Shown piece by piece: positions 5,512 through 42,318 of a stretch of DNA of 64,000 nucleotides. Positions within the stretch are counted from its first letter, which is position 1. Each line of letters starts with the position of its first letter. Source of the DNA: a virus (Duplodnaviria; Caudoviricetes); IMG/VR virus record IMGVR_UViG_3300049740_002155; one strand, 5' to 3'. The notes beneath the pieces were generated by a model. That model was given only the letters and a program-made list of their open reading frames with translations, was not told the origin of the DNA and searched no databases. The position numbers and the translations under genes are program-made.

Positions 5512-5518
5512 AATGGTT

Positions 5519-7621: not shown

Positions 7622-7641
7622 TAGTCAACTGATACATTATT

Positions 7642-8796: not shown

Positions 8797-8799
8797 GTT

Positions 8800-22067: not shown

Positions 22068-22469
22068 ATGGATCAAACGGAAAAAATAACAGAACCTTCA
22101 GACGAAAAAAGGTTTCTAAAGTTTTTACCTACAAATCCTTTGAAACATTTAAAACTGCTTATAGTTGTTTTATTGCATTGGGCAGTTGTGATTGGTAATT
22201 TTTGTGCATTCTTTATTTTAGCATTTCAAGGATTTACTCCCTATGGATTTCCGTGGTATGTATGTTTGCCATTATGTTCTTTTATTGCTTTAATTTCATT
22301 TTCGAGAGTTCTGGATTGCCCAATGACTCGGTATGAAAATAAAATGAGAGTGAAACTTGGAAAACCAACAATCAAAGGATTCATAGGTCATTATTTTCTG
22401 AAACCGTATGTTCGTAGAAAAGTGAGAAAAGCAAGAGAGAAACGAGAAGCATCGGGAAAAACAAAATGA
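22068..22469 (+). CDS. Membrane protein, DUF2784-like
   Basis: Two TM segments, H in the first helix, CPMTRYENKMR. Confidence 0.5.
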   Translation: MDQTEKITEPSDEKRFLKFLPTNPLKHLKLLIVVLLHWAVVIGNFCAFFILAFQGFTPYGFPWYVCLPLCSFIALISFSRVLDCPMTRYENKMRVKLGKPTIKGFIGHYFLKPYVRRKVRKAREKREASGKTK

Positions 22470-23545
22470 ATATTAAATTTAAAGAAGCATTTGAGTTTGC
22501 GAAGTGGGTATTTGAAAAAAATGGTGTACCTGTAAAATACTCAAATATTTGTGCAGATGTATTGTTAAGTGGAGATGAATTGGGTTTCACTACCCACGGA
22601 CTGAGTAGACTTGGTTATTACATAAAAAGAATTAAAGATAACGTAATTGACGTAAATGCAACACCAGAAATAGTTCGTGACAATAAATCTTGTGTTACTA
22701 TTGATGGTCATAATGCGTTGGGTCAAATTGTCGGTAAGTATGCAATGAACCAAGCAATTGCAAAAACACAGCAACATGGAATTAGTTGTGTTGCAGTAAA
22801 AAATTCTTCTCACTATGGAATTGCGAGTTATTATTCAAGATATGCAACTACGCAAAATTTAGTAGGAATGAGTTTTACGAATGCTCGTCCCGCAGTTGCC
22901 CCATATGGTGGATGTGAACCTAAAATGGGAACAAATCCTTATGCAGTTGCATTTCCATCAGATATGAAATTTCCGTTTAGCATAGATTGTGCTACATCTT
23001 CTTATCAACGAGGTGATTTGGAAGTGATGGCACGGAAAAATCCAAATAGTTATGTTCCTAATTGTGCAATTGTATCTGATAATCAAAATCTTACATTTGA
23101 ACGTTCTCTTAGGTGGTTAAAGAAAGGTATAGCCGCATTAACACCAATCGGTGGACACAAGGGTTCTGGATTATCAATTGCGATTGAATTAATGTGTTCT
23201 GCTTTTCAAAGTGGTGCCTGTATGAGTCAATTAAGTGGTTTATACGAAGGTGATACACAGAATCCTAATTATGACATTGGACATTTCTTTATTTGTATTG
23301 ACCCTGAAAACTTTACAGACATTGATACTTTCAAGAAAAATGTTGGGGATGTAATGCGTGAAATCAAAGCAAGCAAAACTGCTAAAGATACAAATGAAAT
23401 TTTAGTGCCAGGTGAATTGGAGTATAATACTTCATTGAAAGTTCACAAAAACGGAATAGAAGTATCTGATGAGTTGCTTGTGGAACTAAATACTCTTGAA
23501 TTTTCTAAATGGCAAAAGACAAACACAACAAAAAATTCGAAATAG
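22466..23545 (+). CDS. Ldh_2 family (malate/L-lactate/ureidoglycolate-type) NAD(P)-dependent oxidoreductase
   Basis: THGLSRL, DGHNALGQ, SSHYG, GTNP, GGHKGSGL, VPGE. Confidence 0.9.
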   Translation: MNIKFKEAFEFAKWVFEKNGVPVKYSNICADVLLSGDELGFTTHGLSRLGYYIKRIKDNVIDVNATPEIVRDNKSCVTIDGHNALGQIVGKYAMNQAIAKTQQHGISCVAVKNSSHYGIASYYSRYATTQNLVGMSFTNARPAVAPYGGCEPKMGTNPYAVAFPSDMKFPFSIDCATSSYQRGDLEVMARKNPNSYVPNCAIVSDNQNLTFERSLRWLKKGIAALTPIGGHKGSGLSIAIELMCSAFQSGACMSQLSGLYEGDTQNPNYDIGHFFICIDPENFTDIDTFKKNVGDVMREIKASKTAKDTNEILVPGELEYNTSLKVHKNGIEVSDELLVELNTLEFSKWQKTNTTKNSK

Positions 23546-23757
23546 CAATAGCAGTATTGGGAATGATGGGAGGTGCAATTCTTCCTTTTCCTGATTTAAT
23601 CGGTTGGGGATTTGTTGTATTTACGATTGTAAATTTATTGAGTATGATATTTTTTATTCGTCAAAAAATGTATTGGTTATGTGCATTATCCTTTTATTTT
23701 GTTGTGGTAGACGCAATTGGTGTTTGGATAAATTTAATCGATAAACATTTCTTATAA
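23509..23757 (+). CDS. Small membrane protein
   Basis: Three hydrophobic segments; start uncertain because it overlaps the previous gene. Confidence 0.55.
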   Translation: MAKDKHNKKFEIAIAVLGMMGGAILPFPDLIGWGFVVFTIVNLLSMIFFIRQKMYWLCALSFYFVVVDAIGVWINLIDKHFL

Positions 23758-23839
23758 AAATCATTGAACCAAATGTATATTTTATTCGTTATATTGTTGA
23801 CGGTATGTGTAAAACTATGATATATATAAAGAAACGGTT

Positions 23840-25084
23840 ATGAATAAAAATATATATCTTGTAGAAGGTACACGAACTCCATTTTGTAAGATGGGTTCGG
23901 ATTTCGCAAACACATCTGCATCTGAGTTGGGAGTCTCTGCAACAAAGGCATTATTTGCGAAGATGGATTTAGATCCAAGTTTAATTGATGAAAGTGTAAT
24001 GGGATGTGTTTGTCAACCGGCAGATACTGCAAACATTACACGTGTAATAGCATTGAAAGCAGGAGTACCAAAAAAAGTTCCTGCTTATACGGTACATCGT
24101 AATTGTGCAAGTGGATTTGAATCTATTACACAAGCATTTGATAAAATCAATGCAGGTAGAGGAAGTGTGTATTTAAGTGGTGGAACAGAGAATATGACTC
24201 AAGCACCTTTTTTGTATCGCAAAAGTGCAGTTGATAAATTTACTCAACTTAGTAAATGCAGAACATTTCGTGATCGTCTTCATACGATTTTAAGTTTCCG
24301 TCCGAAAGACTTTGCACCCATTGTAAGTTTACGATTGGGTTTGAGTGATATTACTGTTGGAATGAACATGGGTGAAACTGCCGAACTTATAGGTCGTGAA
24401 AACAAAGTAACTCGTTATCACCAAGATACATTTGCACTAGAATCACATTTAAAAGCACACGTTGCTCAAGAAAAATTAGCACAAGAAATATCTCCTTTTT
24501 ATTTTGCAGATGGAAAATTTGTGAATGTTGATAATGGAGTTCGTGGTGAGCAAAGTATGGGTGCTTTGGAAAAATTGCGACCGGTGTTTGATAAACAAGG
24601 AACCGTAACTGCCGGTAATGCATCTCAAATTACAGACGGAGCAGTTTCATTGTTAATTGCAGATGAAGAAGCAGTAAAACAAAACAATTGGAATCCACTT
24701 GGAAGAATTTCTGCATATGCGTATGCAGGATGCGATCCTGAAAGAATGGGACTTGGACCTGTTAATGCTATTGAAAAAGTTTGTGAAGAAACAAATACTA
24801 TGTTGAATGATTTTGATTTAATTGAAATCAACGAAGCATTTGCAGCCCAAGTATTAGCAGTTTGTAAGCAACTTAAAAATAACACAGACCTTGGTCAAGT
24901 TGACACAAGTAAACTAAATGTAAACGGAGGAGCAATTGCTCTTGGTCATCCTGTTGGATGTTCTGGATCAAGAATTGCACTTACTACTTTAAAAGAACTT
25001 GAAAGACGAAATGCTAAGAAAGCATTAATTTCACTTTGCATTGGTGGTGGTCAGGGTGGAGCAATCATTTTAGAAAGAGATTAA
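23840..25084 (+). CDS. fadA: 3-ketoacyl-CoA thiolase
   Basis: RTPF, HRNCASG, TAGNASQITDGA, NEAFA, GHPVGCSG, LCIGGGQG. Confidence 0.95.
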   Translation: MNKNIYLVEGTRTPFCKMGSDFANTSASELGVSATKALFAKMDLDPSLIDESVMGCVCQPADTANITRVIALKAGVPKKVPAYTVHRNCASGFESITQAFDKINAGRGSVYLSGGTENMTQAPFLYRKSAVDKFTQLSKCRTFRDRLHTILSFRPKDFAPIVSLRLGLSDITVGMNMGETAELIGRENKVTRYHQDTFALESHLKAHVAQEKLAQEISPFYFADGKFVNVDNGVRGEQSMGALEKLRPVFDKQGTVTAGNASQITDGAVSLLIADEEAVKQNNWNPLGRISAYAYAGCDPERMGLGPVNAIEKVCEETNTMLNDFDLIEINEAFAAQVLAVCKQLKNNTDLGQVDTSKLNVNGGAIALGHPVGCSGSRIALTTLKELERRNAKKALISLCIGGGQGGAIILERD

Positions 25085-25085
25085 T

Positions 25086-27161
25086 ATGAGCAACTCAATT
25101 AAAAGAGAACAACACGGTGAAGTGGTTACAATTACATTTGACCAAGAAAAATCGGTGGCAAATGTATTCAATGAAGATATGTTTGCTGAATTGAACGATC
25201 AACTTGATTATATAGAAAACAATCAGAAGTCAATTCGTGGAGTAATATTCAAAAGTGCAAAACCAAGTATTTTCATAGCAGGTGCAGATTTAAAATCATT
25301 TGCAGATGATCCGACACCTGAAAGAATTTCATATTTAATTAAACTCGGACAAGATACATTTAATCGTATTGAAGATTTGTGTATTCCAACCGTGGCTGCA
25401 ATTAATGGTGCGTGTCTTGGTGGTGGATATGAACTTGCTCTTGCGTGTGATCATCGTGTTGCGACTTTAGATTCAAGTACAAAAATCGGATTGCCTGAAA
25501 CGATGCTTGGAATTCTTCCGGCTTGGGGTGGATCAACTCGGTTGCCAAGAATGATCGGAATTGCAGGTGCCATGAATATTATTCTTGCAGGTAAGGTGGT
25601 TGTTCCAAAGTTAGCATACAAATATAAAATGGTGGACAGAGTGTGTCATAAAGAAAATCTCGATTATGTTGCAAAGTCTTATATTCATAACGGAAAAAAG
25701 AAATACAAAAAGCATACATTAAATCGTTTTCCTTTAAAGTATATTGCAAAAAGCAAAGCAACTAAAAATGTTCTTAAAACAACAGGTGGTGTTTATCCTG
25801 CTCCATTAAAAGCAATTGACGTAATGATACAAGGACTTGAAGTAAGTCGTAATGAATCATTGAAACTTGAAGAAAAAGCATTTACTGAACTTCTTAATTC
25901 GGATGTCGCAAGTAATCTTGTTAATATATTCTTTTTACAAGAAAGAAGCAAGAAAACAAAAAGTGACAAGGATTTTAAAGTAAATAAAACTGCGGTAATT
26001 GGTGCAGGTGTTATGGGTGCAGGTATTGCACAATGGATTAGTTCACGTGGAATCAAAGTATTACTTAAAGATATTAAGTCTGAGTTTGTAGCAAATGGAA
26101 TCAAAACAATTAGTAAGTTGTATTCAGCAGCCGTTTCAAAACGAGTAATGACTAAAAGTGAAGCATCAAGCAAAATGGATAATGTTACACCAATTACAGA
26201 ATCGTTGCCAATGAAGACTGTTGATTTAGTCGTAGAAGCAGCCGTAGAACAATTAGACATCAAGCAGAATTTATTTGCAGAACTTGAAGCACTTGTTCGT
26301 GATGATACAATTCTTGCAACAAATACATCAGCACTTAGCATTGTGGATGTCGCAGAAAAAATGGAACACAAAGAACGAGTTGTTGGTATTCACTATTTTA
26401 ATCCTGTTCATAAAATGAAATTGGTGGAAGTGGTAAAAGGAGAATGCACAAGTGAAGAAACGGTTCTCAAAGCAACTCAATTTGTAAAGAAAACAGGTAA
26501 ACTTCCTGTGATTGTAAAAGATAGTCCTGGTTTCTTGGTGAATCGTATTTTGATGCCTTATTTGATTGAAGCAGTTCATTTAGCAAACGGAGGAAATGAT
26601 ATTGAGCATACCGACAAACTTCTTCGTAAGTTTGGAATGCCAATGGGACCATTTCGTTTGATTGATGAAGTTGGTGGTGATGTGTGTCAACACGTTGCGG
26701 ATGATTTACTTAATAGATTAAACACCAAGTTTCCAAATAGTAGTCTTCTTCGTAGAATGATTGAAGAAGGAAATCTTGGAAAGAAAAGTGGACAAGGATT
26801 TTACAAATATAGTAAAGGCAAATCAAATGGTGCGTGTGATGTGCCAAGAAATTCAACATTCAGATTGCAATGTGAAAATGAAGAAATCGTGGACAGATTA
26901 ATTCTTGTAATGATCAACGAATCAGTTCGTTGTTTAGAAGAAGAAGTAGTTGCAAGTCCTAAAGATGTTGACTTTGGAATGATTATGGGAACAGGATGGG
27001 CTCCGTTTCGTGGTGGACCGATTCGTTATCTTGATAGTGTAGGTTCAAAGAAAATAGCAGAAAGATTACAAGAACTAGCAAAAAAAGATGCATACTTTAC
27101 TCCGTGTGATATGCTTCTTGAATACGCAAAAACAAACAAAAAATTCTACGAGGATAAATAA
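25086..27161 (+). CDS. fadB: Multifunctional enoyl-CoA hydratase / 3-hydroxyacyl-CoA dehydrogenase (FadB/FadJ)
   Basis: FIAGAD, GGGYELALACD, GLPETMLG, GAGVMG, NTSAL, GIHYFNP, GFLVNR, MPMGPF. Confidence 0.95.
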   Translation: MSNSIKREQHGEVVTITFDQEKSVANVFNEDMFAELNDQLDYIENNQKSIRGVIFKSAKPSIFIAGADLKSFADDPTPERISYLIKLGQDTFNRIEDLCIPTVAAINGACLGGGYELALACDHRVATLDSSTKIGLPETMLGILPAWGGSTRLPRMIGIAGAMNIILAGKVVVPKLAYKYKMVDRVCHKENLDYVAKSYIHNGKKKYKKHTLNRFPLKYIAKSKATKNVLKTTGGVYPAPLKAIDVMIQGLEVSRNESLKLEEKAFTELLNSDVASNLVNIFFLQERSKKTKSDKDFKVNKTAVIGAGVMGAGIAQWISSRGIKVLLKDIKSEFVANGIKTISKLYSAAVSKRVMTKSEASSKMDNVTPITESLPMKTVDLVVEAAVEQLDIKQNLFAELEALVRDDTILATNTSALSIVDVAEKMEHKERVVGIHYFNPVHKMKLVEVVKGECTSEETVLKATQFVKKTGKLPVIVKDSPGFLVNRILMPYLIEAVHLANGGNDIEHTDKLLRKFGMPMGPFRLIDEVGGDVCQHVADDLLNRLNTKFPNSSLLRRMIEEGNLGKKSGQGFYKYSKGKSNGACDVPRNSTFRLQCENEEIVDRLILVMINESVRCLEEEVVASPKDVDFGMIMGTGWAPFRGGPIRYLDSVGSKKIAERLQELAKKDAYFTPCDMLLEYAKTNKKFYEDK

Positions 27162-27163
27162 CA

Positions 27164-29014
27164 ATGAGTGAAATAGATACTTCAAAAATGTCCAAGGGTA
27201 AAGCAGATGCCTTGGAAGCAGCCGAGGCTGCACGTGATAAAGGAAAAAAAGGAACAAAAAGTTTTAGTGGTGGTTTGTTTACAGGTGAAGCAAATTACGA
27301 TTTGATTTATCCATTTCCAAAACAAAAAGCAGAAGACAAAGCAAAAGGAGATAACTTTCTTGATGAATTAACAAAAGTTTTAGATGAACACGTTGATGCA
27401 GATGCAATTGACCGTGAAGGTGAAATTCCTGATAAGGTATTTGAAGAACTTGCAAAGATTGGTGCATTCGCAATTAAAATTCCAACGGAATATGGTGGTC
27501 GTGGTTTATCACAAACAAATTATTCACGTGCGGCTATGAAGTTGGGTGAAGTGTGTGGAAATATTACTGCATTATTATCAGCACATCAAAGCATCGGAGT
27601 TCCTCAACCATTGTTACTTTACGGAACAGACGAACAAAAGCAAAAGCATCTTCCTCGTTTTGGTAAAGGTGAAGTAAGTGCATTTGCATTGACCGAAGAA
27701 ACTGTAGGAAGTGATCCTGCACAAATGACTGCATACGCAGAATTATCAGAAGATAAAACTCATTATGTTTTAAACGGAGAAAAACTTTGGTGTACAAATG
27801 GAGTAAAAGCAAGTGTTATAATTGTAATGGCAAGAACACCTGATACAGAAATCAAAGGTAAAATGCGTAAAAGCATTTCCGCATTTATTGTGGACATGGA
27901 TACACCTGGTGTTGAAATAGTTACCCGTTGTCGTTTTATGGGTCTTAAAGCATTGTACAATGGTGTTGTAAAGTTTACTGATGTAAAGATACCTGTTGAG
28001 AATTTGGTAGCAGGTGAAGGCAAAGGATTAAAGGTTGCACTTAGCACCTTGAATACAGGTCGTCTTACATTACCGGCTGCTTGTGTGGGACTTATGCGTA
28101 GTTGCTTAAAGATTTGTCGTGAGTGGGGTTCATCACGTGAACAATGGGGATGTGCTATTGGTAAACACCAAGCAATTGGTGATAAAATTGCTAAGATTGC
28201 GGCCAAGAATTTCGCAACTGAAAGTATCGTTCTTTTTACATCAAGTTTAGTGGATGGTAAAAAAGCAGATATTCGTGTGGAATCTGCAATGTGTAAAATG
28301 TGGGGAACAGAAGAAGCATGGAAAGTAGCAGACGAAACGATGCAAATACGTGGTGGTCGTGGTTACGAAACTGCTGACTCACTTCGCAATCGTGGTTCTG
28401 ATCCAATCCCTGTGGAAAGATTTCTTCGTGATTGTCGTATTAATATGATCTTTGAAGGTTCAAGTGAAATTATGCGTTTGCTTTTGGCACGTGAAGCACT
28501 CGATCCACATCTTAAAGCAGCCGGAGCAGTTCTTGATTCACGTCTTCCATTGATGGTTCGTTTAAAAGCAGCCATCGGAGCAGGACTTCATTATGCAGTT
28601 TGGTATCCGAAGCAATGGTTACCAACATTTAATTATGGACCAAAAGGAATTACTTGCTCTTTGAAAAAGTATCTTTGGTATGTATCAAGAACAAGCAAGA
28701 AACTTAGTCGTAAACTTTTTCATAGTATGGCAATTTATGGTCCAGGTCTTGATAAGCAACATAAACTTCTTGGTCGTTTGACTGAAATCGGAACAGAGTT
28801 GTTTGTTATTTCTGCGTGTGCATTGCGTATTGATAGTATGATCAAAGATGAACCTGAAAAGAAAGCAGAGTATCTTGAACTTATGGATGTAGTTTTTAAC
28901 GAATCAAAGATTCGCATCAAAAACAACTTCTATGGAATGCGTAACAATAACGACAAAAAGAATTATTCTTTCGCAAAGAAAATTCTTGGAGGTACTTTCA
29001 AGTTTCTTGAATAA
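27164..29014 (+). CDS. fadE: Acyl-CoA dehydrogenase (long, VLCAD/FadE-like)
   Basis: AHQSIG, FALTEETVGSD, NGEKLWCTNG, LNTGR, GGRGYE, RINMIFEGSSEI. Confidence 0.92.
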   Translation: MSEIDTSKMSKGKADALEAAEAARDKGKKGTKSFSGGLFTGEANYDLIYPFPKQKAEDKAKGDNFLDELTKVLDEHVDADAIDREGEIPDKVFEELAKIGAFAIKIPTEYGGRGLSQTNYSRAAMKLGEVCGNITALLSAHQSIGVPQPLLLYGTDEQKQKHLPRFGKGEVSAFALTEETVGSDPAQMTAYAELSEDKTHYVLNGEKLWCTNGVKASVIIVMARTPDTEIKGKMRKSISAFIVDMDTPGVEIVTRCRFMGLKALYNGVVKFTDVKIPVENLVAGEGKGLKVALSTLNTGRLTLPAACVGLMRSCLKICREWGSSREQWGCAIGKHQAIGDKIAKIAAKNFATESIVLFTSSLVDGKKADIRVESAMCKMWGTEEAWKVADETMQIRGGRGYETADSLRNRGSDPIPVERFLRDCRINMIFEGSSEIMRLLLAREALDPHLKAAGAVLDSRLPLMVRLKAAIGAGLHYAVWYPKQWLPTFNYGPKGITCSLKKYLWYVSRTSKKLSRKLFHSMAIYGPGLDKQHKLLGRLTEIGTELFVISACALRIDSMIKDEPEKKAEYLELMDVVFNESKIRIKNNFYGMRNNNDKKNYSFAKKILGGTFKFLE

Positions 29015-30366
29015 TGCATACGGTTCTTGAGTTTTTCAAGATTGGAATAGGTCCTTCTAGTTCTCATACTATTGGACCTATTTCTGCGTCACGAAAGTTT
29101 GTTTCTTTTTTGAAGCATAAAAAAGTGTTTGGTGAAATTGATTCTATTAAAGTTGAATTATTCGGTTCACTTGCATTAACAGGTGAAGGTCACGGAACAC
29201 CAATTGCAATCAAACTAGGATTGTTAAATTATGCTCCTGATGAAGTAAAACAGAAACAATTGATTGAAGTTGATTCTCTTGGTAATGAAATAAAAATTGG
29301 GGGAATTCGAAATATAAAATTCAATGATGATGATATTATTTTTAACAAAAAGAAAAAACTTCCGTATCATCCAAATGGAATGAAATTTTATGCTTATGTA
29401 AAAAACAAAGAAGTTGCAACACGAATTTATTATAGTATAGGTGGTGGGTTTGTTGTTACCGAGGAAAATGCAAAAAAAGACAAACTAAAATCAAGCAAAC
29501 GTAAACTGACTAATTCATTTAAAACTGCGACTGAATTATTTACAATTGCAGATAATCGTAATTTAAGAATTTCAGATATAATGCTTGAAAATGAAAAATG
29601 CTTTAGAAAAGAAAAAACTACCAAAAAAGAACTTCGCAGAATTTTCAGAATTATGCAAGAATGTGTTGATCGTGGATTAACTACCGATGGTATGTTGCCT
29701 GGTAAAATAAACGTTGAACGAAGAGCAGCCATAATGTATGAAAACTTTTTGAAAAACAGCGAATTAGATTCTCAAGCATTTCTTGATTACGCAAGTATTT
29801 GTGCAATTGCAGTCAACGAAGAAAATGCCAATATGAATCGTGTTGTAACTGCTCCTACTAATGGGGCATCTGGCATTATACCTGCAACGATGATGTATAT
29901 TAAAGAGTATGTCCACGAAAAATCAGAAGATTGGGACATTAGATTTCTGCTTACTGCGGGAGCAATTGCGATGTTGTATAAAATGAACGCAAGCATTTCA
30001 GGAGCAGAAGTTGGTTGTCAAGGTGAAATTGGAGTTGCGTGTAGTATGGCAGCTGGTGCTTTAACTGAAATTGTAGGAGGAACTTTAAAGCAAGTAGAAA
30101 ATGCGGCCGAAATTGCTATGGAGCATAATCTAGGATTAACGTGTGATCCGGTTGCTGGACTTGTACAAATACCTTGCATAGAACGAAATGCAATAGGAGT
30201 TGGTAAAGCAATTAATGCAAGTCGTATGGCAATGCTTAATGAAAAGAATACAAAAATTTCATTGGATGATGTAATAAAAACAATGAAAGCAACTGGTGCT
30301 GATATGAAAAGCAAATACAAAGAAACAAGTAAAGGTGGTTTAGCAGTAAATGTAACTGAGTGTTAA
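29014..30366 (+). CDS. sdaA: Fe-S L-serine ammonia-lyase (single chain)
   Basis: [66 protein letters not shown]. Confidence 0.95.
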
Positions 30367-32908: not shown

Positions 32909-33496
32909 ATGGAAACAATTAATACAGATGTAAAAAACAAATGGTATACACTCAAAGTATTATCTAATTTTGAAGATAGAGTTAAGAATCTTATTGAGAA
33001 GAAGTTAGAAAATGAACCAGAGTGTAGTAAATTTTTTCACGAAGTTCTTATGCCCTCAGAGATTGTAACCTCTGTTGTAAAAGGTAAGAAAAAAGCAAGA
33101 GTCCGAAAGTTATACCCTGGCTACTTGTTTGTTCGTATGGACATTTATGATGAAAATGAACCAACTCAATTAAACCCACTTGCGTATTATTTTATTACTT
33201 CTATTAATGGCATCACAGGATTTATTGGTGGAAAATCACCTGTTAGATTAAGACAAGATGAAATTGATACAATCAAGTTACACGTAGAGAAGTTTCAAAA
33301 TAAAGAGACTCCAAAGTCTTACTATGAAATTGGTCAAAATGTATCTATACTTGATGGACCTTTTGTTGGACTGCAAGGTTCTGTTGGTGAAGTTAATATT
33401 GAAAACCAAAAATTGAAAGTGCTTGTGAGCATTTTCGGACGTGAAACACCAGTTGAATTAGAAAATTGGCAAGTAGAAAAAGTTGAAGAAGAGTAA
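32909..33496 (+). CDS. nusG: Transcription elongation factor NusG
   Basis: [23 protein letters not shown] domain [20 protein letters not shown]. Confidence 0.95.
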
Positions 33497-33497
33497 T

Positions 33498-33722
33498 ATG
33501 GAATTTGATGATTATTTTAAAAAGATGTGTGGTGTACCCGAAGATACTCCATCACAAACTTTTAAGATAGATAATAACAATACTCCTTTCAATAAAAAAG
33601 AACTTAGATGGCTAAAAGACCAATTAGAGAGTTGCATTGAGTGGGATGATCCAAAACGGTCAACCAAACAAATGTACAAAAATATGCTTAAAAAAGTAGA
33701 AGAAAGATTACAATTATTATGA
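33498..33722 (+). CDS. Hypothetical protein
   Basis: ORF between nusG and DUF1338; start at ATG 33498. Confidence 0.55.
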   Translation: MEFDDYFKKMCGVPEDTPSQTFKIDNNNTPFNKKELRWLKDQLESCIEWDDPKRSTKQMYKNMLKKVEERLQLL

Positions 33723-34513
33723 ATATACACAAATTATTTGATGATATGTGGGATTTATATGCAAGAATAAATCCACAAGTCGTTAAGGTTAAAGAACTAA
33801 TAGAAAAGCGAGAAGGCAGACCTGTAAAAAATGACCATATAGCACTTAGAACTTTTAATCACCCCAGAATCAATCGCAAAGTGCTTGCACAATCCTTCTT
33901 AAATAGTGGGTATATAGAAGTTGAAGATTTAAAGTTTGAAAAGAAAAAATTAGATGCAACTTATTTTACTCACACCGATGATAGTTTGACACGTGTTTTT
34001 ATTAGTGAGTTGAGATTAGAAGAATTTTCTCAAGAACTACAAGATACAATAAATCGTTTAGTGGATGAACTTCCAAACAAAGTAATAGAACAATTTGATT
34101 TCTGTAATTATGGAACTCCTTGGAGTATGATAACAGAAGATACATATAATTTTCTAAAAGAAGAAAGTGAATATGCGGCTTGGGTTGCCACTTTCGGATT
34201 TATCGTAAACCATTTTACAATCAGCATAAATGATTGTGATACATTTGAAAATTTAGAGCAAGTTAACTCATTTTTAAAGGAAAATGGATATAGAGTAAAC
34301 GACTCTGGTGGAGAAATAAAAGGTTCAGTTGAACAGGAACTTGAGCAATCAAGTATAATGGCAGAAAATGTATTAGTTGAATTTGATGCACTTGAATATA
34401 AACCTGTTGAGATACCTGGATGTTATTATGAATTTGCATTGCGTCATAATAATTTCGATGGATTTATTGCAGGTTCTGCTGACAAAATTTTTGAAAGTAC
34501 GGATAATAAGTAA
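33719..34513 (+). CDS. DUF1338 family (HglS-like fold) protein, short ast-associated type
   Basis: NDHIALRTF, FISEL, NHFTISIN, IKGS...LEQSS, YYEFA.R. Confidence 0.85.
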   Translation: MNIHKLFDDMWDLYARINPQVVKVKELIEKREGRPVKNDHIALRTFNHPRINRKVLAQSFLNSGYIEVEDLKFEKKKLDATYFTHTDDSLTRVFISELRLEEFSQELQDTINRLVDELPNKVIEQFDFCNYGTPWSMITEDTYNFLKEESEYAAWVATFGFIVNHFTISINDCDTFENLEQVNSFLKENGYRVNDSGGEIKGSVEQELEQSSIMAENVLVEFDALEYKPVEIPGCYYEFALRHNNFDGFIAGSADKIFESTDNK

Positions 34514-35883
34514 TGGCACTTAGCAAGAATGAAATAAATGATAAATTCAAGAATGCTAAAATAGGTTTTGATACTTGGAGAAAAACCACATTACAACATC
34601 GTAAAAGTATTCTTAGAAAATACAAAAAGTTATTAGAAGCAAATGTTGATGTAATTGCTGAAATAATTTCAAAAGAACATGGAAAACCATTATGGGATGC
34701 TAAGTCTGAAGTGGGTGCAATGGTAGGAAAAATTGATGTAACATTTGAATCTTACAATGACAGATTAAACGCAATACGATCAGTTCATGCTGATATGAGT
34801 ATTCAGGCAAGATTCAAACCATTTGGTGTATTTGCAGTTATCGGTCCTTTTAATTTCCCTGGACATTTGCCAAATGGTCATATTGTTCCATTGCTACTTG
34901 CGGGTAATTCAGTTGTATTTAAACCAAGTCATTTAACACCTGAAACTGGAAGAAAAATGGTTGAGTTGCTACACGGTGCAGGTGTACCAAAAGATGTTGT
35001 AACATTATGCGAAGGAAGTGGTCAAGATATAATTGATAATCCTTTATTGGATGGAGTATTTTTTACAGGAAGTACAAAAGTTGGTCATAGTATTTACAAA
35101 AACTTGAGTGATTACCCTGAGAAGATTGTCGCACTGGAAATGGGTGGAAACAATGCAACAATTTTAGAGGAAGCAGGTGGAATAAACACTGCAACAAACA
35201 TTTTGTTGCAATCTGCTTTTATATCAACGGGTCAAAGATGTACTTGCACACGTCGTTTGATTATGAATAAAGGTAAAACTGCGTGTGAAGGTGACCGTAT
35301 CCTTAGAGGTTTAATTGATGCGTGTAATAAAATGGTGATAGGAAACTACACAGATGATCCAGAACCTTTTATGGGACCAATGATTACAACAAATGCAGTT
35401 AAAACTATACTTGATGCTCAAAAGCATTTGGTTAGTCTTGGTGGAATCATATTAAAAGAATTTAAGCAAATAGGTGGTGTAACAAGCAAGTTAGTGGAAC
35501 CTGGTATCATTGATGTTACAAATATCAAAAATCTTCCTGACGAAGAATATTTTGGACCACTTCTTCAGATTATACGAAGCAACAACTTTGATCATGCAAT
35601 CGAAATTGCGAACGATACAAAATACGGATTAGTTTCTGGCGTTATCACGAAAAACAAAGACTTGTTTTGGAAAGCAGAATCTGAACTAAAAACAGGAATA
35701 GTCAATTGGAATCGTCCTACTACAGGATGTGCCAGTGTTGTTCCTTTCGGTGGAATGGGTTGGAGTGGTTGCAATCGTCCAAGTGGTTATACAACTATTG
35801 AGCATTGCGGCCACCCAACTGCACTACACTTGACTGAAGTACCAGAACTTCCGAGCAAGTTGTTGCCTGGATTAAATTTATGA
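34513..35883 (+). CDS. astD: Succinylglutamate semialdehyde dehydrogenase
   Basis: GPFNFPGHLPNGHIVP, FKPS, FTGS, ALEMGGNN, GQRCTC, EEYFGP, NWNRPTTG, PFGG. Confidence 0.9.
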   Translation: MALSKNEINDKFKNAKIGFDTWRKTTLQHRKSILRKYKKLLEANVDVIAEIISKEHGKPLWDAKSEVGAMVGKIDVTFESYNDRLNAIRSVHADMSIQARFKPFGVFAVIGPFNFPGHLPNGHIVPLLLAGNSVVFKPSHLTPETGRKMVELLHGAGVPKDVVTLCEGSGQDIIDNPLLDGVFFTGSTKVGHSIYKNLSDYPEKIVALEMGGNNATILEEAGGINTATNILLQSAFISTGQRCTCTRRLIMNKGKTACEGDRILRGLIDACNKMVIGNYTDDPEPFMGPMITTNAVKTILDAQKHLVSLGGIILKEFKQIGGVTSKLVEPGIIDVTNIKNLPDEEYFGPLLQIIRSNNFDHAIEIANDTKYGLVSGVITKNKDLFWKAESELKTGIVNWNRPTTGCASVVPFGGMGWSGCNRPSGYTTIEHCGHPTALHLTEVPELPSKLLPGLNL

Positions 35884-37067
35884 AGTTTTTAAATATTATT
35901 GATGATCGGTTTGATGAATTATTGAACCGACTTGAAATGCTATCAAACATCAATACACACACCTATAATTTACTTGGATTAGATTCTTGTATTTATCCTC
36001 TTGAAAAAATGTTTAAGGAATTAGAACCTGACGAACATAAACAAATAGAATTAAATGCAGTTCCGTTCATAGATTTTGATGGAGAGCAAAAAGATCAAAG
36101 ATACGGAAGAATTCTTCGTTTGCGTAAAAGACAAAATGCAGAAACAAAAATTTTATTGTGTGGGCATTATGATACCGTGTATCCCAAAGACCACGATTTT
36201 CAGAAGGTAACAATAGACGGAAACAAAATGATGGGTCCTGGTGTACTTGATATGAAAGGTGGTTTAATGACGATGTTGTATGCTTTACTTGCATACGAAA
36301 ATAGTGATATTAAAAATAAAGTCGGTTGGGAGGTATTAATTTTACCAGATGAAGAAGTTGGAAGTATTGCATCATCTTCTTATTTAGGAACTTCCGCAAA
36401 AAACAGTGATATTGGATTGTTGTATGAACCTGCGTTACCTGACGGAAGCATCGTCAAATCACGCAAAGGAGTAGGAAGTTATACAATGGTATTCCGAGGA
36501 GTATCTGCACACGCAGGTCGTTGCTTTAACGATGGATTAAACGCATTTTACGGAGTATCTGATTTTATTAATTGGTCAAATAATATGATGGAAATCAATA
36601 AAGACTTAATTATCAATCTTGGTAAAGTAGAAGGAGGAGGACCAAATAATGTTGTACCTGATTTGGCAATCGCAAGATTCAATGCAAGAGTGTCCACGAA
36701 AAAACAAAGAACCGAGTTTGAACATCAGTTAGAAATCTTTAATCGTAGAATGCGAAAAAAATATCCTGGTACAGAACTTCACGGAAAATTTACAAGTCCT
36801 CCGAAACCTTATTCTGCAAAAGCAAAACAAATTGTAGATGGTTTGCAGAAGTGTGCGAAGCAACTGAATATGCCAAAAATAAAATTGGTTGCAACTGGTG
36901 GAGCAAGTGACGGAAATAAATTAAATGGATTTGGATTGCCTAACATTGATTCACTAGGTCCTATCGGAGATGGAATGCATAGTCGTGATGAGTATGTGCT
37001 TATAGATTCAATAAAACAACGAACAAAGTTATCTGCGTTATATTTATATAATATAACAAAGGAGTAA
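35880..37067 (+). CDS. M20 family metallohydrolase (candidate succinylglutamate desuccinylase, AstE role)
   Basis: GHYDTV, GPGVLDMKGG, DEEVGS, YEP, AHAG, GGASDGN; embedded in the ast cluster. Confidence 0.85.
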   Translation: MKFLNIIDDRFDELLNRLEMLSNINTHTYNLLGLDSCIYPLEKMFKELEPDEHKQIELNAVPFIDFDGEQKDQRYGRILRLRKRQNAETKILLCGHYDTVYPKDHDFQKVTIDGNKMMGPGVLDMKGGLMTMLYALLAYENSDIKNKVGWEVLILPDEEVGSIASSSYLGTSAKNSDIGLLYEPALPDGSIVKSRKGVGSYTMVFRGVSAHAGRCFNDGLNAFYGVSDFINWSNNMMEINKDLIINLGKVEGGGPNNVVPDLAIARFNARVSTKKQRTEFEHQLEIFNRRMRKKYPGTELHGKFTSPPKPYSAKAKQIVDGLQKCAKQLNMPKIKLVATGGASDGNKLNGFGLPNIDSLGPIGDGMHSRDEYVLIDSIKQRTKLSALYLYNITKE

Positions 37068-37071
37068 TATT

Positions 37072-38427
37072 ATGTGGTACAACGATTTTTTTACAGACAA
37101 AACAACAAATGATGCAAAACAAATTTTATTAAAAGAATATACTAAGTCCGTAAAAAAACTAAAACACACACCACCAACTGCACCCAAAGAAATCACCGAA
37201 GAACTACTAGAACGATTTAAAAATGTTCGTGGTGGTGGGTTGGTATTTCCATATGTAGGAACTGGTAAAGGATATGGATGTTTAACTGAACTCACAGATG
37301 GTTCTGTAAAATATGATATGATTGGTGGCATCGGAGTAAATTATTTTGGACACGGAGATGAAAAAATTGTAGAAGCAACTTTGAATTCTGCATTTAGTGA
37401 TTGTGTAATGCAAGGTAATCTTCAACAAAACGAAGAATCTTTGGTGGTGATGGAAAAGTTTAAACGAGTTGCAAATTTACACGGAGCAAATCTTGATCAT
37501 GTATTTTTAACAACAAGTGGAGCAATGGCAGTTGAAAACGGAATCAAGATGGCATTTCAAAAAAAGTTTCCTGCTGATCGTATTCTTGCATTTGCAAATT
37601 GTTTTCACGGAAGAACAACAGGTGTTTCACAAATCACAGATAAACCATTTTATCGTGAAGGATTGCCTGATACACTTAAAGTTGATTATATCCCGTTCAA
37701 TGCAGAATCGGCAGTAAAGCATCTTGAAAAGCATATAGCAAGACATCCTGGTAAACATTCATGTATGGTCGCAGAACTTATTCAAGGAGAAGGTGGGTTC
37801 AATGTGGGAGATAAAAAGATTCTTCAAGATATTGCAAAATGTCTTAAAAAACACGATATACTTTTCTTTGTAGATGAAGTACAAAGTTTTGCACGAACAT
37901 ATAAACCATTTGCATTTCAAATGTTTGAATTGGATGAATATGTTGATTTGGTTTGCGTAGGAAAAAGTACACAAGTATGTGCAACGATTTTCAAAGAAGA
38001 GGTTAAACCAAGACCAGGATTAGTTTCACAAACTTTTACAGGAGCAACTTCCTCATTGTTTGCGGCCGATGTAGTTTTGTCGGAAATTCTTAAAGGTAAG
38101 TTTTATGATACCGACAAAAAGCATGGAACTAACCATGAGTATTTTGATTATCTGAAAAAAGAATTAAGTGACTGCAAGCATATTTCTAATATCGGTGGGA
38201 TCGGAGCAATGTTTGCATTTCAAGTATTTGATGGAACTCCTGATGTAACAATGAAAGTGGTTCATAAACTTTTTGAGAACGGAGTAATCTCTTTTATAGC
38301 AGGAAAAAATCCAACGAAAGTTCGTTTTCTTCTTCCGACACCAGTGATAAGCAAAAAAGATTTAAAGGCAGTTATTAAAATTACCAAGGATACCTTGAAA
38401 AATTATGATAGTTCGTCAGATAAATGA
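37072..38427 (+). CDS. astC: Class III PLP aminotransferase (succinylornithine aminotransferase role)
   Basis: DMIGGIGV..GH, SGAMAVE, FHGRT, ELIQGEGG, DEVQ, GK; between M20 and astA. The substrate assignment rests on context. Confidence 0.75.
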   Translation: MWYNDFFTDKTTNDAKQILLKEYTKSVKKLKHTPPTAPKEITEELLERFKNVRGGGLVFPYVGTGKGYGCLTELTDGSVKYDMIGGIGVNYFGHGDEKIVEATLNSAFSDCVMQGNLQQNEESLVVMEKFKRVANLHGANLDHVFLTTSGAMAVENGIKMAFQKKFPADRILAFANCFHGRTTGVSQITDKPFYREGLPDTLKVDYIPFNAESAVKHLEKHIARHPGKHSCMVAELIQGEGGFNVGDKKILQDIAKCLKKHDILFFVDEVQSFARTYKPFAFQMFELDEYVDLVCVGKSTQVCATIFKEEVKPRPGLVSQTFTGATSSLFAADVVLSEILKGKFYDTDKKHGTNHEYFDYLKKELSDCKHISNIGGIGAMFAFQVFDGTPDVTMKVVHKLFENGVISFIAGKNPTKVRFLLPTPVISKKDLKAVIKITKDTLKNYDSSSDK

Positions 38428-39397
38428 AAATGATCTAAACGGATTATTGAATCTTGCCAAAAAAGCAGGTACAGGAATAACAACTTTACAAAACGATAAA
38501 GTCTTATTGCAAAAAAGACTTGAGCATACACTTTACTCGTTCAATAAAACTGTTGATAATCCAGAAGGTGAAAGTTATTTGTTTGTAATGGAAAACAACA
38601 ATGAGTTGGTAGGTATATGTGGTATCATCAGCAAAGTTGGTGGATTTGAACCTTTCTACACATATGTCACAGATACCGAAGTACATGAAAATAAAGAACT
38701 TAAAATCAAAACATCAAACGAAGTTTTGCGTTTAGATAAAAAGCATTCTGGTCCTACTGAAATCGGAACTTTATATTTGCTTCCAAAAGCAAGAAAAGGA
38801 AACGGAAAGTTGCTTAGTTATTCACGATTTCTTTTTATGGCGGAATATCTTGATCGTTTTGAAAAAGAAGTAATCGCAGAAATGCGTGGTGTGGTTACTA
38901 CAAGAGGTCATAGTCCTTTTTACGAGTATTGCATGAAACACTTTCTTAAAATAGATTATACCAATGCAGATTATCTTAGTATGAAGAACAAGCAGTTCAT
39001 AGAAGACCTCATGCCGAATCATCCTATTTACATAAATCTTCTTCCAAAGCACGTTCGTGATGTTCTTGGTCAAGTCCACAAAAATACAGAACCTGCGATG
39101 GGAATGTTGAAAAAGCAGAACTTCGAGTTCAACGGAGAAATAGATATTTTTGAAGCAGGACCGACTTATTCTTGTGAAACTAAAAACATTAAAAGTATTT
39201 CTCAAAGTAAAGTAGGAAAATACGTAGGTGATTTCGTGGAAGACCCGAAGGATACACTTATTGCGACATACGAACCTTTTCGTTGTTGTCGTGGAAAAGC
39301 AGAGTATTGGAACAATGGAGAAATACAAATAAACAAAGAATCGGTCAAAAAACTTGGTCTAAAAATAAACGATAAAATTCGTGTATATTTTCTTTAG
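38405..39397 (+). CDS. astA: Arginine N-succinyltransferase
   Basis: GITTL, EPFY, TEIGTLYL, GKLLS..RFLF, IAEMRG, SPF, PIY..LLP, GQVH..T.PA, IDIFEAGP. Confidence 0.93.
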   Translation: MIVRQINENDLNGLLNLAKKAGTGITTLQNDKVLLQKRLEHTLYSFNKTVDNPEGESYLFVMENNNELVGICGIISKVGGFEPFYTYVTDTEVHENKELKIKTSNEVLRLDKKHSGPTEIGTLYLLPKARKGNGKLLSYSRFLFMAEYLDRFEKEVIAEMRGVVTTRGHSPFYEYCMKHFLKIDYTNADYLSMKNKQFIEDLMPNHPIYINLLPKHVRDVLGQVHKNTEPAMGMLKKQNFEFNGEIDIFEAGPTYSCETKNIKSISQSKVGKYVGDFVEDPKDTLIATYEPFRCCRGKAEYWNNGEIQINKESVKKLGLKINDKIRVYFL

Positions 39398-39420
39398 ATT
39401 GTAAATACTTATATATTGTT

Positions 39421-39666
39421 ATGAAGAAATCAGAATTACAATCAATCATCCGTGAAGAAATTCAAAACTTTATCAATGAATCTTTTAGCAATTGGGAAGT
39501 AAAGTTTGTTCGTTCAATCAAAAACAAACTTGCCGGTGATGTAAAAAAAGGTCATGTTGAAGTTGTAAAAGCAAGAGGAACTTCTGAAGCAATTAAAAAG
39601 GCCTGTAAAAATGCAGGATGCGAAGGTGCATGGATGCACGTTGATGTAGAAGTTACCAAGAAGTAA
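39421..39666 (+). CDS. Hypothetical protein with MKKSELQSIIREEI N-terminal helix
   Basis: 81 aa; ATACTTAT motif upstream. Confidence 0.7.
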   Translation: MKKSELQSIIREEIQNFINESFSNWEVKFVRSIKNKLAGDVKKGHVEVVKARGTSEAIKKACKNAGCEGAWMHVDVEVTKK

Positions 39667-39690
39667 TTATTATAAAAACTCATATATACC

Positions 39691-39698
39691 ATATTTAT
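39691..39698 (+). promoter_or_regulatory. ATATTTAT motif (candidate late promoter)
   Basis: 4 nt upstream of ATG 39703. Confidence 0.5.
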
Positions 39699-39702
39699 TG
39701 AT

Positions 39703-40011
39703 ATGGGAAAAAAGTATAATAGTTTCGATGAATACTATGAGTTTTATTTGAGCAAGCATAAAAACCCACTTAATCGTTTTCTTCATCTTCTTGGTAATAT
39801 TGCCACAATAACATTTGTTGTAAGTGTATTCAAGTTTGATTTAAGTTTATGGTGGCTGTTGCTTACTCCATTCGTAGTTTATCCATTGGCTGCATTGGGA
39901 CATTTCATTTGCGAAGGAAATATGCCTGCGTTTTTATCAGGTAATCCTATTTACGCAAAAATGAGTGATTGGAAAATGCTTTATCAATGGTTGACTGGTA
40001 AACTCAAGTAA
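39703..40011 (+). CDS. DUF962 / Mpo1-like membrane protein
   Basis: YEFYLSKHKNP.NR.LHLLG, GHFICEGN.PA, SDW.M. Confidence 0.85.
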   Translation: MGKKYNSFDEYYEFYLSKHKNPLNRFLHLLGNIATITFVVSVFKFDLSLWWLLLTPFVVYPLAALGHFICEGNMPAFLSGNPIYAKMSDWKMLYQWLTGKLK

Positions 40012-40025
40012 TCTATAATAATATC

Positions 40026-41294
40026 ATGTCGTTTGAAGTGAATTTTGATGGGTTGGTCGGTCCAACTCATAATTACGCAGGTTTGTCCCACGGAAATGTT
40101 CACTCGGTAAACAATAAAAACAAACCGAGCAATCCTAGACGGGCTGCACTTCAAGGTTTAGATAAAATGAAGTTGATGTATGATCTTGGATACAAACAAT
40201 GTATTATACCACCACAAGAACGACCTTTAATCAACGATTATGACGATTATTGTAACATGGCAATCAATGCTTCTGCGAGCAGTATGTGGGTTGCAAATTC
40301 GTCTACAATAGTACCAAGTTCTGATACAAAAAATAACAAGTTGAATATTTTGACTGCAAATTTAAATTTCACACATCATCGCAGAATTGAAGCACCCCAA
40401 ACTCATATTACTTTAAATAAAATTTTCAACGATACCTCTAAATTTTTAGTTCATTCTCCTTTGAATAGTGACGGAACATTAGATGACGAAGGTGCAGCCA
40501 ATCATACTAGATTTTGCAATTCATATGAAGAAGAAGGATTGCACTTTTTTGTATATGGTCGTTCAAACGACTCATCGGAGATTCGTCCGATCAACTATCC
40601 TGCAAGACAAACTTACGAAGCATCCAAAAAAGTTGCGGAAAATATGCAAGTCAATAACGCAGTATTTGCACAACAATCTGCGGAAAGTATTGATGCGGGT
40701 GTATTTCACCATGATGTTATTGGTGTGGGTAACAAGAATTTATATTTTTATCACGAAAAGGCACTAGCAGAAGAAGCAGAAACAATTGCAAAGTTACAAG
40801 ATGCGTTTGTTGGTAAATTAAATTTTTTGTGCGTAAAGGAATCTGAAGTTCCGATGGATGTGGCAGTTGAGACATATCTATTTAATAGTCAACTAGTTGA
40901 ATATGAAAATGGACATATGCTAATAGCACCCATAAGATGTCGTAGAAACTCATTGGTAAGAAAATACTTACAAAGTATTACAGGTAAACATAAACTGATT
41001 AAAAAGGTACGGTATGTTAATTTAGAGCAAAGTTTATGGAACGGTGGTGGTCCTGCTTGCTTGAGATTGAGGGTGGTGATGAATAAGTCTGAGTTTTCTG
41101 CTTTGCATCCTGGTATAATTTTTGATGATAGATTATACACAAGACTGCGTAAATGGATTAAAAAATATTATGTAGGAAATTTAATTTATGATGATCTATT
41201 TACACCAAGTTTTATTCAACGAGGTCGAGACGCATTATTTGAACTTACGAATATTCTTGGGTTGGGTTATATATACCCACTTCAGTTGAAATAA
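40026..41294 (+). CDS. astB: N-succinylarginine dihydrolase
   Basis: EVNFDGLVGPTHNYAGLS.GN, ALQGL.KM, PPQERP, ASSMW.AN, DEGAANH, VFH.DVI, NGGGPACLRLRV. Confidence 0.95.
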   Translation: MSFEVNFDGLVGPTHNYAGLSHGNVHSVNNKNKPSNPRRAALQGLDKMKLMYDLGYKQCIIPPQERPLINDYDDYCNMAINASASSMWVANSSTIVPSSDTKNNKLNILTANLNFTHHRRIEAPQTHITLNKIFNDTSKFLVHSPLNSDGTLDDEGAANHTRFCNSYEEEGLHFFVYGRSNDSSEIRPINYPARQTYEASKKVAENMQVNNAVFAQQSAESIDAGVFHHDVIGVGNKNLYFYHEKALAEEAETIAKLQDAFVGKLNFLCVKESEVPMDVAVETYLFNSQLVEYENGHMLIAPIRCRRNSLVRKYLQSITGKHKLIKKVRYVNLEQSLWNGGGPACLRLRVVMNKSEFSALHPGIIFDDRLYTRLRKWIKKYYVGNLIYDDLFTPSFIQRGRDALFELTNILGLGYIYPLQLK

Positions 41295-41316: not shown

Positions 41317-41535
41317 GTGTTCTATGACTCAAAACCTTATTTTTATTTGCTTATTGAGTTATTTGTTTTTACAACTATAATATTACATACACAGATTGCT
41401 AAAATTGAAATAGATATAAAAGAAGAAACAAAACGAGAATTGGAACTACATGAATTCATAGAAGATGTAAAAAGTGATCCTGTAAAGATTCAAAAAATTC
41501 TACAACTTCAAAAAAATAGTTTGACAAAAAAATAA
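41317..41535 (+). CDS. Small membrane-anchored hypothetical protein
   Basis: GTG start 4 nt after CTATTTAT; N-terminal TM segment. Confidence 0.5.
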   Translation: MFYDSKPYFYLLIELFVFTTIILHTQIAKIEIDIKEETKRELELHEFIEDVKSDPVKIQKILQLQKNSLTKK

Positions 41536-41559
41536 AAATCGTCATAATTGGATGCTATT

Positions 41560-42234: not shown

Positions 42235-42288
42235 CATTAAAAACCGAAAGGAGGTGTTTTTACACCGAAAACTTTTAAAAAGTTTTGG

Positions 42289-42318
42289 AGACTTCTCATT
42301 TGAGAAGTCTTTTTTTTT
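42289..42318 (+). terminator. Rho-independent terminator
   Basis: AGACTTCTCA-TT-TGAGAAGTCT followed by a T run. Confidence 0.85.

Follow-up and report, generated by a model that had tools for sequence, protein, structure and literature searches.

The canonical arginine succinyltransferase (AST) pathway, encoded by astCADBE in Escherichia coli and by aruCFGDBE in Pseudomonas aeruginosa, degrades arginine in five steps. Phage auxiliary metabolic genes, by contrast, are usually single bottleneck enzymes. Here we describe a cluster of AST-like genes at positions 33719-41294 of a 64-kb stretch of viral DNA (IMG/VR record IMGVR_UViG_3300049740_002155). This stretch, hereafter the window, is part of a genome of more than 255 kb, and all coordinates are positions in it. 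The cluster probably encodes a phage variant of AST that lacks AstE, and the marine jumbo phages that have it as an auxiliary metabolic gene cluster form a cosmopolitan family. The virus keeps under selection candidate genes for every step of this five-reaction catabolic pathway, near a beta-oxidation set and a serine deaminase.

Four kinds of described or newly collected systems invite comparison. Like canonical AST, the phage cluster encodes homologs of AstA, AstB and AstD with conserved catalytic residues, and the same five-step chemistry is predicted. Unlike canonical AST, it is virus-encoded and has no AstE-family gene in the window, an M20 metallohydrolase standing in its place; its aminotransferase belongs to a different class III subfamily (24-27% identical to AstC); and it carries an extra DUF1338 gene, an extra DUF962 gene and a phage open reading frame (ORF), in the order HGLS-astD-M20-aminotransferase-astA-orf81-Mpo1-like-astB (HGLS, the DUF1338/HglS-like gene; orf81, an 81-amino-acid phage ORF; Mpo1-like, the DUF962 gene). 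The same five enzyme families make up the AstE-less bacterial operons of the type M20-aminotransferase-AstA-AstD-AstB (Fibrobacteria L013, Desulfomonilaceae L014 and Planctomycetota loci). The phage proteins branch in the clade of these operons, with best overall identities of 44% for AstA, 43-48% for the aminotransferase, about 40% for M20, 40-46% for AstD and 39-45% for AstB, and in both settings M20 lies next to astA and an aminotransferase of about 460 amino acids lies directly upstream of astA. The phage copies are nevertheless long-stemmed and AT-rich, astD has moved to the front, and the cluster has acquired HGLS, DUF962 and phage ORFs. With the astC-astA-astD-DUF1338 operons of Vibrio, Photobacterium, Shewanella and Alteromonadaceae the cluster shares a DUF1338/HglS-like gene of about 265 amino acids adjoining astD, although the phage HGLS comes from another clade and lies upstream, not downstream, of astD. 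Finally, like the clusters of several auxiliary metabolic genes in large phages and giant viruses, it consists of host-derived genes that sit among viral ones, have taken on viral composition and are shared by relatives; what sets it apart, within the literature searched, is the presence of AST genes.

Eight ORFs, all on the plus strand, fill the cluster (Table 1). They form a chain that starts at a NusG-like phage gene and passes through a 74-amino-acid phage ORF, which occupies the equivalent place in relative loci L001 and L092 and whose stop codon overlaps the start of HGLS (an ATGA overlap, within TTATGA). HGLS and astD overlap at TAATG, astD and M20 at ATGA, and the aminotransferase gene and astA by 23 nucleotides (nt). 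Short gaps separate M20 from the aminotransferase gene (4 nt), astA from orf81 (23 nt), orf81 from the Mpo1-like gene (36 nt) and the latter from astB (14 nt). The GC content of the cluster (0.31-0.36, with 0.19-0.30 at third codon positions) equals that of the phage UvsX, DnaB and RNR genes, as against 45-66% GC in the bacterial ast loci closest to it. A preliminary description of this DNA had named astA, astB, astD, a class III aminotransferase and an M20 hydrolase, with intact catalytic motifs and coupled by overlapping or adjacent starts and stops, in a block flanked by phage genes and seemingly integrated into the phage transcription program. All five genes were found in the expected positions and on the plus strand; the motifs were borne out by alignment to solved structures or homologs, the coupling by the junctions above, and the integration into the phage by the start/stop chaining from the NusG-like gene, the phage composition and the virus-only ORF inside the cluster. 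That description did not recognize HGLS, the first gene of the range, nor that the second small gene is DUF962/Mpo1-like.

Table 1. Genes and putative regulatory elements of the phage cluster and its borders, in window coordinates
Feature	Coordinates	Strand	Supporting match or position
NusG-like phage gene, head of gene chain	32909-33496		
74-aa phage ORF, bridges NusG-like gene to cluster	33498..33722	+	ATG 1 nt past NusG stop
HGLS, DUF1338/HglS-like Fe(II) 2-oxoacid oxygenase-decarboxylase, 264 aa	33719..34513	+	PF07063 97 bits
AstD, N-succinylglutamate 5-semialdehyde dehydrogenase, 456 aa	34513..35883	+	NF006992 531 bits vs cut-off 514
M20 metallohydrolase, PRK07338 family, candidate N-succinylglutamate desuccinylase	35880..37067	+	NF005602 407 bits vs cut-off 357
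Long class III aminotransferase, candidate N2-succinylornithine aminotransferase	37072..38427	+	PF00202 165 bits
AstA, arginine N-succinyltransferase, 330 aa	38405..39397	+	PF04958 365 bits; TIGR03243 313 vs cut-off 284
orf81, 81-aa phage-only ORF between astA and astB	39421..39666	+	No Pfam, NCBIfam or PHROG family
Conserved element TATAAAAACTC...CCATATTTAT, candidate phage promoter	39671..39698	+	Ends 4 nt 5' of Mpo1-like ATG
DUF962/Mpo1-like protein, 102 aa	39703..40011	+	PF06127 82.8 bits vs cut-off 24, profile positions 1-95 of 95
Sigma-70-like site TTGACT-17-TATAAT	39991..40019	+	11/12 consensus matches; ends 7 nt 5' of astB ATG
AstB, N-succinylarginine dihydrolase, 422 aa	40026..41294	+	PF04996 503 bits; NF009789 512 vs cut-off 452
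Porin-like small outer-membrane beta-barrel candidate, 224 aa	41560..42234	+	Viral Atlas clusters with Porin_4, MipA, TorF, KdgM-like features

In profile searches AstA, AstB, AstD and M20 all scored above curated NCBIfam cut-offs, and the aminotransferase matched PF00202 only. AstA falls below the cut-off of the AstA equivalog TIGR03244 (311 bits against 391), and AstD below that of TIGR03240 (523 bits against 579). Alignment to solved structures supports all three core enzymes. AstA matches PDB 1YLE (4e-43) and, when aligned with 19 homologs, keeps every one of the 66 invariant columns. In AstB, matched to the E. coli enzyme (PDB 1YNF, 4e-108), the Cys of GGGPACLRLRV and the His of FHHDVI (FHxDVI) are aligned, as are the catalytic Glu and Cys motifs of AstD, EMGGNN and GQRCTC, with those of PDB 5U0L (2.6e-126).

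Quick maximum-likelihood trees placed phage AstA, AstB and AstD each inside a non-Pseudomonadota clade, with Shimodaira-Hasegawa-like approximate likelihood ratio test (SH-aLRT) supports of 99, 97 and 95, respectively. The clade is rich in Planctomycetota and also holds Verrucomicrobiota, Thermodesulfobacteriota, Fibrobacterota and allies. The stem of phage AstA measures 0.82 substitutions per site, no specific donor is identifiable, and the best cellular AstA is only 44-48% identical. This pattern may reflect a single old capture of an ast operon of the Planctomycetota-Verrucomicrobiota-Chlamydiota (PVC) type, followed by full amelioration.

The roles of the M20 hydrolase and the aminotransferase are read from a different kind of evidence. 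The nearest solved structure to M20 is that of carboxypeptidase G2, an enzyme that cleaves N-acyl-glutamates, and the phage protein retains its five metal ligands and Glu-Glu pair (His, Asp, Glu-Glu, Glu and His positions). The aminotransferase retains the pyridoxal phosphate lysine and the DEVQ motif. In a comparison set of 80 bacterial astA loci, a PRK07338-type M20 gene lay near astA in 22, and an aminotransferase gene of about 460 amino acids lay directly upstream of astA in 12, all non-proteobacterial, with 39-48% identity to the phage copy. Full M20-aminotransferase-AstA-AstD-AstB operons occurred in Fibrobacteria, in Desulfomonilaceae and in one unclassified metagenome-assembled genome (MAG).

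If M20 does the work of AstE, the two families should rarely meet, and this is the pattern that we observed: the AstE/AspA profile matched 1 of 10 genomes with M20 beside astA and 9 of 10 without M20 (two-sided Fisher test, p of about 0.001). Several of these genomes are MAGs, so that single absences are weak, but the overall pattern is clear, and the complete chromosome of Candidatus Njordibacter, which has M20 beside astA, gave no AstE/AspA match. Because of this complementarity and of the relationship to carboxypeptidase G2, M20 is likely a succinylglutamate desuccinylase that replaces AstE in the cluster. The long class III aminotransferase is a candidate replacement for AstC, its role being read from bacterial operon context. 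The proposal of the preliminary description that the phage carries a five-step route mobilizing nitrogen and carbon, and not a single enzyme, is supported in that a candidate enzyme exists for each of the five AST steps, two of them by context and not by orthology.

In the proposed pathway, AstA would succinylate arginine using host succinyl-CoA, AstB would strip the guanidino group to release two NH3 and CO2, and the long aminotransferase would transfer the delta-amino group to 2-oxoglutarate, yielding glutamate. AstD would then oxidize the semialdehyde with production of NADH, and the carboxypeptidase G2-like M20 would cut N-succinylglutamate into glutamate and succinate. Each arginine would yield, on balance, two glutamates, two ammonia, CO2, succinate and NADH. 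The purpose would be to mobilize nitrogen and carbon for replicating a genome of more than 255 kb in nitrogen-poor seawater, and the cluster suggests that these phages re-fuel nitrogen-starved host cells. If the pathway is active, virocells turn arginine into ammonia, glutamate and tricarboxylic acid cycle carbon on viral instruction, which bears on the turnover of marine dissolved organic nitrogen and on how jumbo phages fund very large genomes in nitrogen-poor water. The cluster would also offer a compact, clonable set for testing the M20 and aminotransferase assignments, both unproven in bacteria, and would draw attention to a repeated and unexplained linkage of DUF1338 oxygenases to astD.

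Several observations weigh against an AstE-less AST pathway of this kind. The aminotransferase falls outside the canonical AstC subfamily, scoring under every NCBIfam cut-off (157 bits at best, against 552). It is only 24-27% identical to canonical AstC/ArgD in the loci compared, and matches E. coli AstC (4ADB) at only 3e-14. Both it and M20 are non-orthologous to the enzymes that they would replace, and the substrate of M20 is read from context. No window ORF scanned matched the AstE_AspA profile, but the window covers 64 kb of the genome and an AstE elsewhere in it is possible. Relative to its solved homolog, AstB is missing about 18 internal residues, and the N-terminus of AstD is some 35-40 amino acids shorter than in solved homologs. 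The cluster may, moreover, add AST to the host or merely duplicate a pathway that the host already has.

HGLS, the first gene of the cluster, has as its best PDB match the Shewanella DUF1338 structure 3LHO (1.7e-69) and also matches rice HglS/FLO7 (6W1K, 3.8e-33); its motifs DHIALRTF (DHxAxRTF), NHFT and YEFA align to both. In HglS, two His and a Glu form the Fe(II) triad and an Arg binds the distal carboxylate of 2-oxoadipate (Thompson et al., PMC7286885). The phage protein retains both His, the Glu and the substrate-binding Arg. A DUF1338/HglS-like gene directly follows astD in 18 of the 80 bacterial astA loci (Vibrio, Photobacterium, Aliivibrio, Shewanella and Alteromonadaceae) and lies within 10 kb in two more (L036 and L082; Endozoicomonas and Poriferisphaera). 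We considered whether HGLS replaces AstB in gammaproteobacteria and rejected this, as AstB is encoded elsewhere in four of five genomes of the HGLS type. In the literature searched, we found no paper commenting on the DUF1338-astD linkage in Vibrionaceae, Shewanellaceae or Alteromonadaceae.

Phage HGLS does not group with the ast-linked copies of gammaproteobacteria. The sister of its clade, with an SH-aLRT of 100, is a low-GC marine group that is abundant and has clusters of up to 930 member sequences. One copy from this sister group (L095, 10001-10795) lies on a TARA scaffold of 27-29% GC, in a Bacteroidota-like housekeeping context (IleRS, DksA-like, LspA and SusC-like receptors) with no ast genes. 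Because phage HGLS lies outside the ast-linked clade, astD and HGLS must have become neighbors on two or more occasions, an argument for some functional link between them. For the host, the leads conflict: the ast trees point to the PVC-rich clade and HGLS to a low-GC marine Bacteroidota-like lineage, and neither is decisive.

Both HGLS, with its coupling to astD, and the DUF962 gene, which keeps its place upstream of astB, have been conserved as parts of the cluster. A more far-reaching reading joins all of these elements, and we regard it as conceivable but rather doubtful. It holds that the phage equips a host in which the conversion of arginine to glutamate is missing or shut down with the whole route, making infected cells arginine sinks and sources of ammonium and glutamate in the surface ocean, and that HGLS is a genuine, unrecognized sixth partner of AST, possibly with the DUF962 protein, recruited beside astD independently in phages and in Vibrio/Shewanella-type bacteria.

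HGLS also supports the strongest alternative, namely, that the cluster is active in the phage but that its main flux is not arginine alone: AstA, the aminotransferase, AstD and M20 would act too, or mainly, on another basic amino acid such as ornithine or lysine, with HGLS finishing a 2-oxoadipate branch. The retained triad and 2-oxoadipate-binding Arg (PMC7286885), the start/stop coupling of HGLS to astD, and the recurrence of this linkage in bacteria, where it arose more than once, all fit such a branch, as does the fact that the best NCBIfam AstA model passed describes the arginine/ornithine succinyltransferase subfamily and not the AstA equivalog. AstB argues for arginine: its family is specific for succinylarginine, and the gene is intact, under selection and invariably present in the phage cluster. 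AstB also persists elsewhere in those four of five HGLS-bearing gammaproteobacteria. We know of no succinyl-lysine route, which counts further against this alternative. On this evidence we consider the alternative unlikely.

Genes upstream in the same array bear on whether the cluster feeds the phage or manipulates the host. Positions 22466-30366 encode an Ldh_2-family dehydrogenase (its nearest model, L-sulfolactate dehydrogenase, scoring under cut-off), a thiolase, a FadJ/FadB-like bifunctional enzyme, a 616-amino-acid acyl-CoA dehydrogenase and an L-serine ammonia-lyase (TIGR00720, 601 bits against a cut-off of 345), and these catabolic genes are conserved in relatives L001 and L092. Further upstream, at 5483-10365, lies a triad of PrkA, YeaH-like and SpoVR genes (PHROG matches 3e-108, 1e-68 and 3e-78); as all three match PHROG families, this stress module is already recurrent in phages.

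Removal of arginine, or a rise in ammonia and glutamate, could in principle alter host physiology, signaling or competition with other phages and so serve manipulation, not nutrition. In E. coli, nitrogen-starvation and stationary-phase regulons include the ast operon as well as the PrkA/YeaG-YeaH module, and the presence of the triad 24 kb upstream of the cluster speaks for such a role. The phage itself, however, requires arginine for its proteins, and the cluster encodes no regulator or effector. Because every one of the upstream genes from Ldh_2 to the serine ammonia-lyase encodes a catabolic enzyme that supplies reducing power, acetyl-CoA or ammonia, a fueling role fits better than a purely manipulative one, which we judge quite improbable.

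Could the ast genes instead be passengers that are drifting toward loss and play no part in infection? Phage AstA, AstB and AstD are the shortest among their homologs (330, 422 and 456 amino acids), and relatives differ by gene gain and loss in the stretch that separates astA from the Mpo1-like gene. The ratio of nonsynonymous to synonymous substitution rates (dN/dS) speaks clearly in the other direction. Against three relatives it ranged from 0.06 to 0.24 in the five enzyme genes and from 0.02 to 0.11 in HGLS and the Mpo1-like gene (0.08 for HGLS), with dS often near or beyond saturation. The cluster is under purifying selection. With catalytic residues intact and gene order retained in relatives at 64-74% protein identity, passenger status is very improbable.

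The cluster recurs with the same gene order in no fewer than 12 independent assemblies of marine origin, with contigs of 136, 192 and 217 kb among them. Among the relatives are a 136-kb ENA contig, four shorter TARA/JGI/ENA contigs, an 80-kb IMG/VR contig, three contigs of a relative with 70% AstA identity, a 191,787-bp JGI contig with an equivalent arrangement (L092) and a 217-kb contig (L094) whose name and frameshifted genes hint at a long-read assembly. At least 39% of the words of the region were present in 14 DNA runs from 13 studies, 13 of them annotated as seawater metagenome and one as power plant metagenome. No single one of the short Logan contigs over the region spans the entire stretch. 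A further relative, L087 (5388 bases), retains the order aminotransferase-AstA-orf-Mpo1-AstB at 41.8% GC, as against 34% here; the cluster thus travels with phages of differing composition and perhaps of differing hosts.

The window itself is almost certainly phage DNA. It is a single-strand gene array of 29-37% GC, and the cluster has on either side genes for replication and recombination that match PHROG families (those for a UvsX-like recombinase, DnaB- and Dda-like helicases and RNR), which bears out its description as flanked by phage genes. DNA methylases are encoded as well. The nearest cultured RecA is that of Microcystis phage Mel-JY01 (52.6%), and orf81 and the porin-like gene belong to protein clusters known only from Uroviricota. 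Capsid (Gp23) and Terminase_6N profiles had no match on the related 80-kb IMG/VR fragment, but as this is about half a genome, the result carries no weight in either direction. This fragment (L006/G001, IMGVR_UViG_3300046168_000085; CheckV completeness 51%) is labeled "provirus," probably owing to the bacterial look of the metabolic island.

That label and the bacterial-type metabolic genes of the block are what favors reading it as host DNA, either misjoined in a chimeric assembly or bordering a prophage on its bacterial side, but this is very unlikely, because the junctions and the arrangement recur in independent assemblies from different samples (including the seemingly long-read 217-kb contig) and the composition is that of phage core genes and unlike all near bacterial loci, while phage genes stand on both sides in one 64-kb single-strand array, the junctions with phage ORFs are overlapping start and stop codons, and the nearest cellular AstA is only 44-48% identical.

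We return to the phage-encoded, AstE-less AST variant and to its novelty, for which the preliminary description had no searches to draw on. A megablast of the region found no match among GenBank phages. AstA and AstB had no genuine GenBank phage record, HGLS had none in GenBank phages, and M20 had only 25%-identical ones. Across the 2.9 million contigs of IMG/VR, searched with alignment-based conserved patterns, astA occurred only in this phage lineage, and no phage outside it combined astA and astB in GenBank or IMG/VR. Four further IMG/VR contigs contain astB but no astA, and in each the gene lies right at the end of the contig; we read them as provirus flanks. In the literature searched, the coverage of which was incomplete, there was no report of AST genes in a virus or of an equally long complete amino acid catabolic route in a phage, nor did we find there a paper on M20 as a desuccinylase. 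The novelty of a whole AST pathway in a phage thus survived the GenBank, IMG/VR and literature searches.

One apparent exception was examined and discarded. The GenBank entry "Acinetobacter phage MD-2021a" (L102, CAKLQH020000003.1) and three sister records, 50-240 kb in length, carry astCADBE beside gdhA, lysP and aprE and are ordinary Acinetobacter chromosome. Filed under a phage taxon, these records will yield false "phage AST" matches.

Two small genes interrupt the cluster between astA and astB. The nearest Atlas clusters of orf81 are 100% Viruses/Uroviricota, and its counterparts in relatives are 46-74% identical, with dN/dS of 0.26-0.36. When the window was searched with the leader pattern MKKSEL...EE as a regular expression, orf81 was the sole match. 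The Mpo1-like protein has as its nearest Atlas clusters bacterial DUF962 or transmembrane-protein clusters of about 100 amino acids. Its gene always lies directly upstream of astB in the phage lineage (L001-L006, L087 and L092, and as two frameshifted ORFs in L094), and the interval that precedes it varies: it holds orf81 alone here, orf81 and a NUDIX hydrolase gene in L094 (17622-18313), and a 454-amino-acid ORF, an 85-amino-acid ORF and a NUDIX gene in L092 (15830-17904).

The Mpo1-like gene is also 97% identical at the DNA level to positions 11296-11604 of L001, whereas identity in the genes on its flanks is 74-86%. Phage lineages thus seem to have recombined recently at this single gene.

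The preliminary description had ascribed a phage-type motif to both small genes. The exact motif, ATATTTAT, stands only before the second of them, the Mpo1-like gene (39691-39698); orf81 is preceded by just a similar AT-rich element. As a phage-wide promoter word the 8-mer was rejected, since its 17 occurrences in the window compare with 10.2 +/- 3.7 expected and 8 of 100 shuffles reached 17, so that it is not significantly enriched; the motif argument for integration holds for one of the two small genes. The longer element is more distinctive: its TATAAAAACTC and CCATATTTAT blocks are invariant in five relatives with differing flanks, and the combined pattern occurs once in the window, at the Mpo1-like gene, against 0.02 occurrences expected. 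Upstream of astB, the -10 hexamer of the sigma-70-like site is retained in four of five relatives. These elements suggest putative internal promoters before the Mpo1-like gene and astB, from which the transcription units would follow.

Contigs from two metatranscriptome libraries are 90-95% identical to the region from AstD through orf81 and include a 1422-nt piece across M20 and the aminotransferase gene. They give a weak hint that the cluster is expressed, against which stands possible carry-over of DNA. Neither the uncovered bins nor a 1649-nt "joint" that one RNA contig shows, one side of it being 24 nt long, was taken as evidence.

Downstream of astB lies the gene for the porin-like protein, preceded by a near-consensus sigma-70 site (TTGACA-16-CATAAT, 41521-41548) and followed by a strong terminator-like hairpin (42287-42312). 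Relatives have a gene for 225-229 amino acids 3' of astB, and a search of IMG/VR with the porin-like protein returned the same contig again and nothing else. The gene is a possible accessory of the pathway, and it suggests a diderm host and high expression. In one metatranscriptome library, a 518-nt contig over this gene reached a depth of 251.

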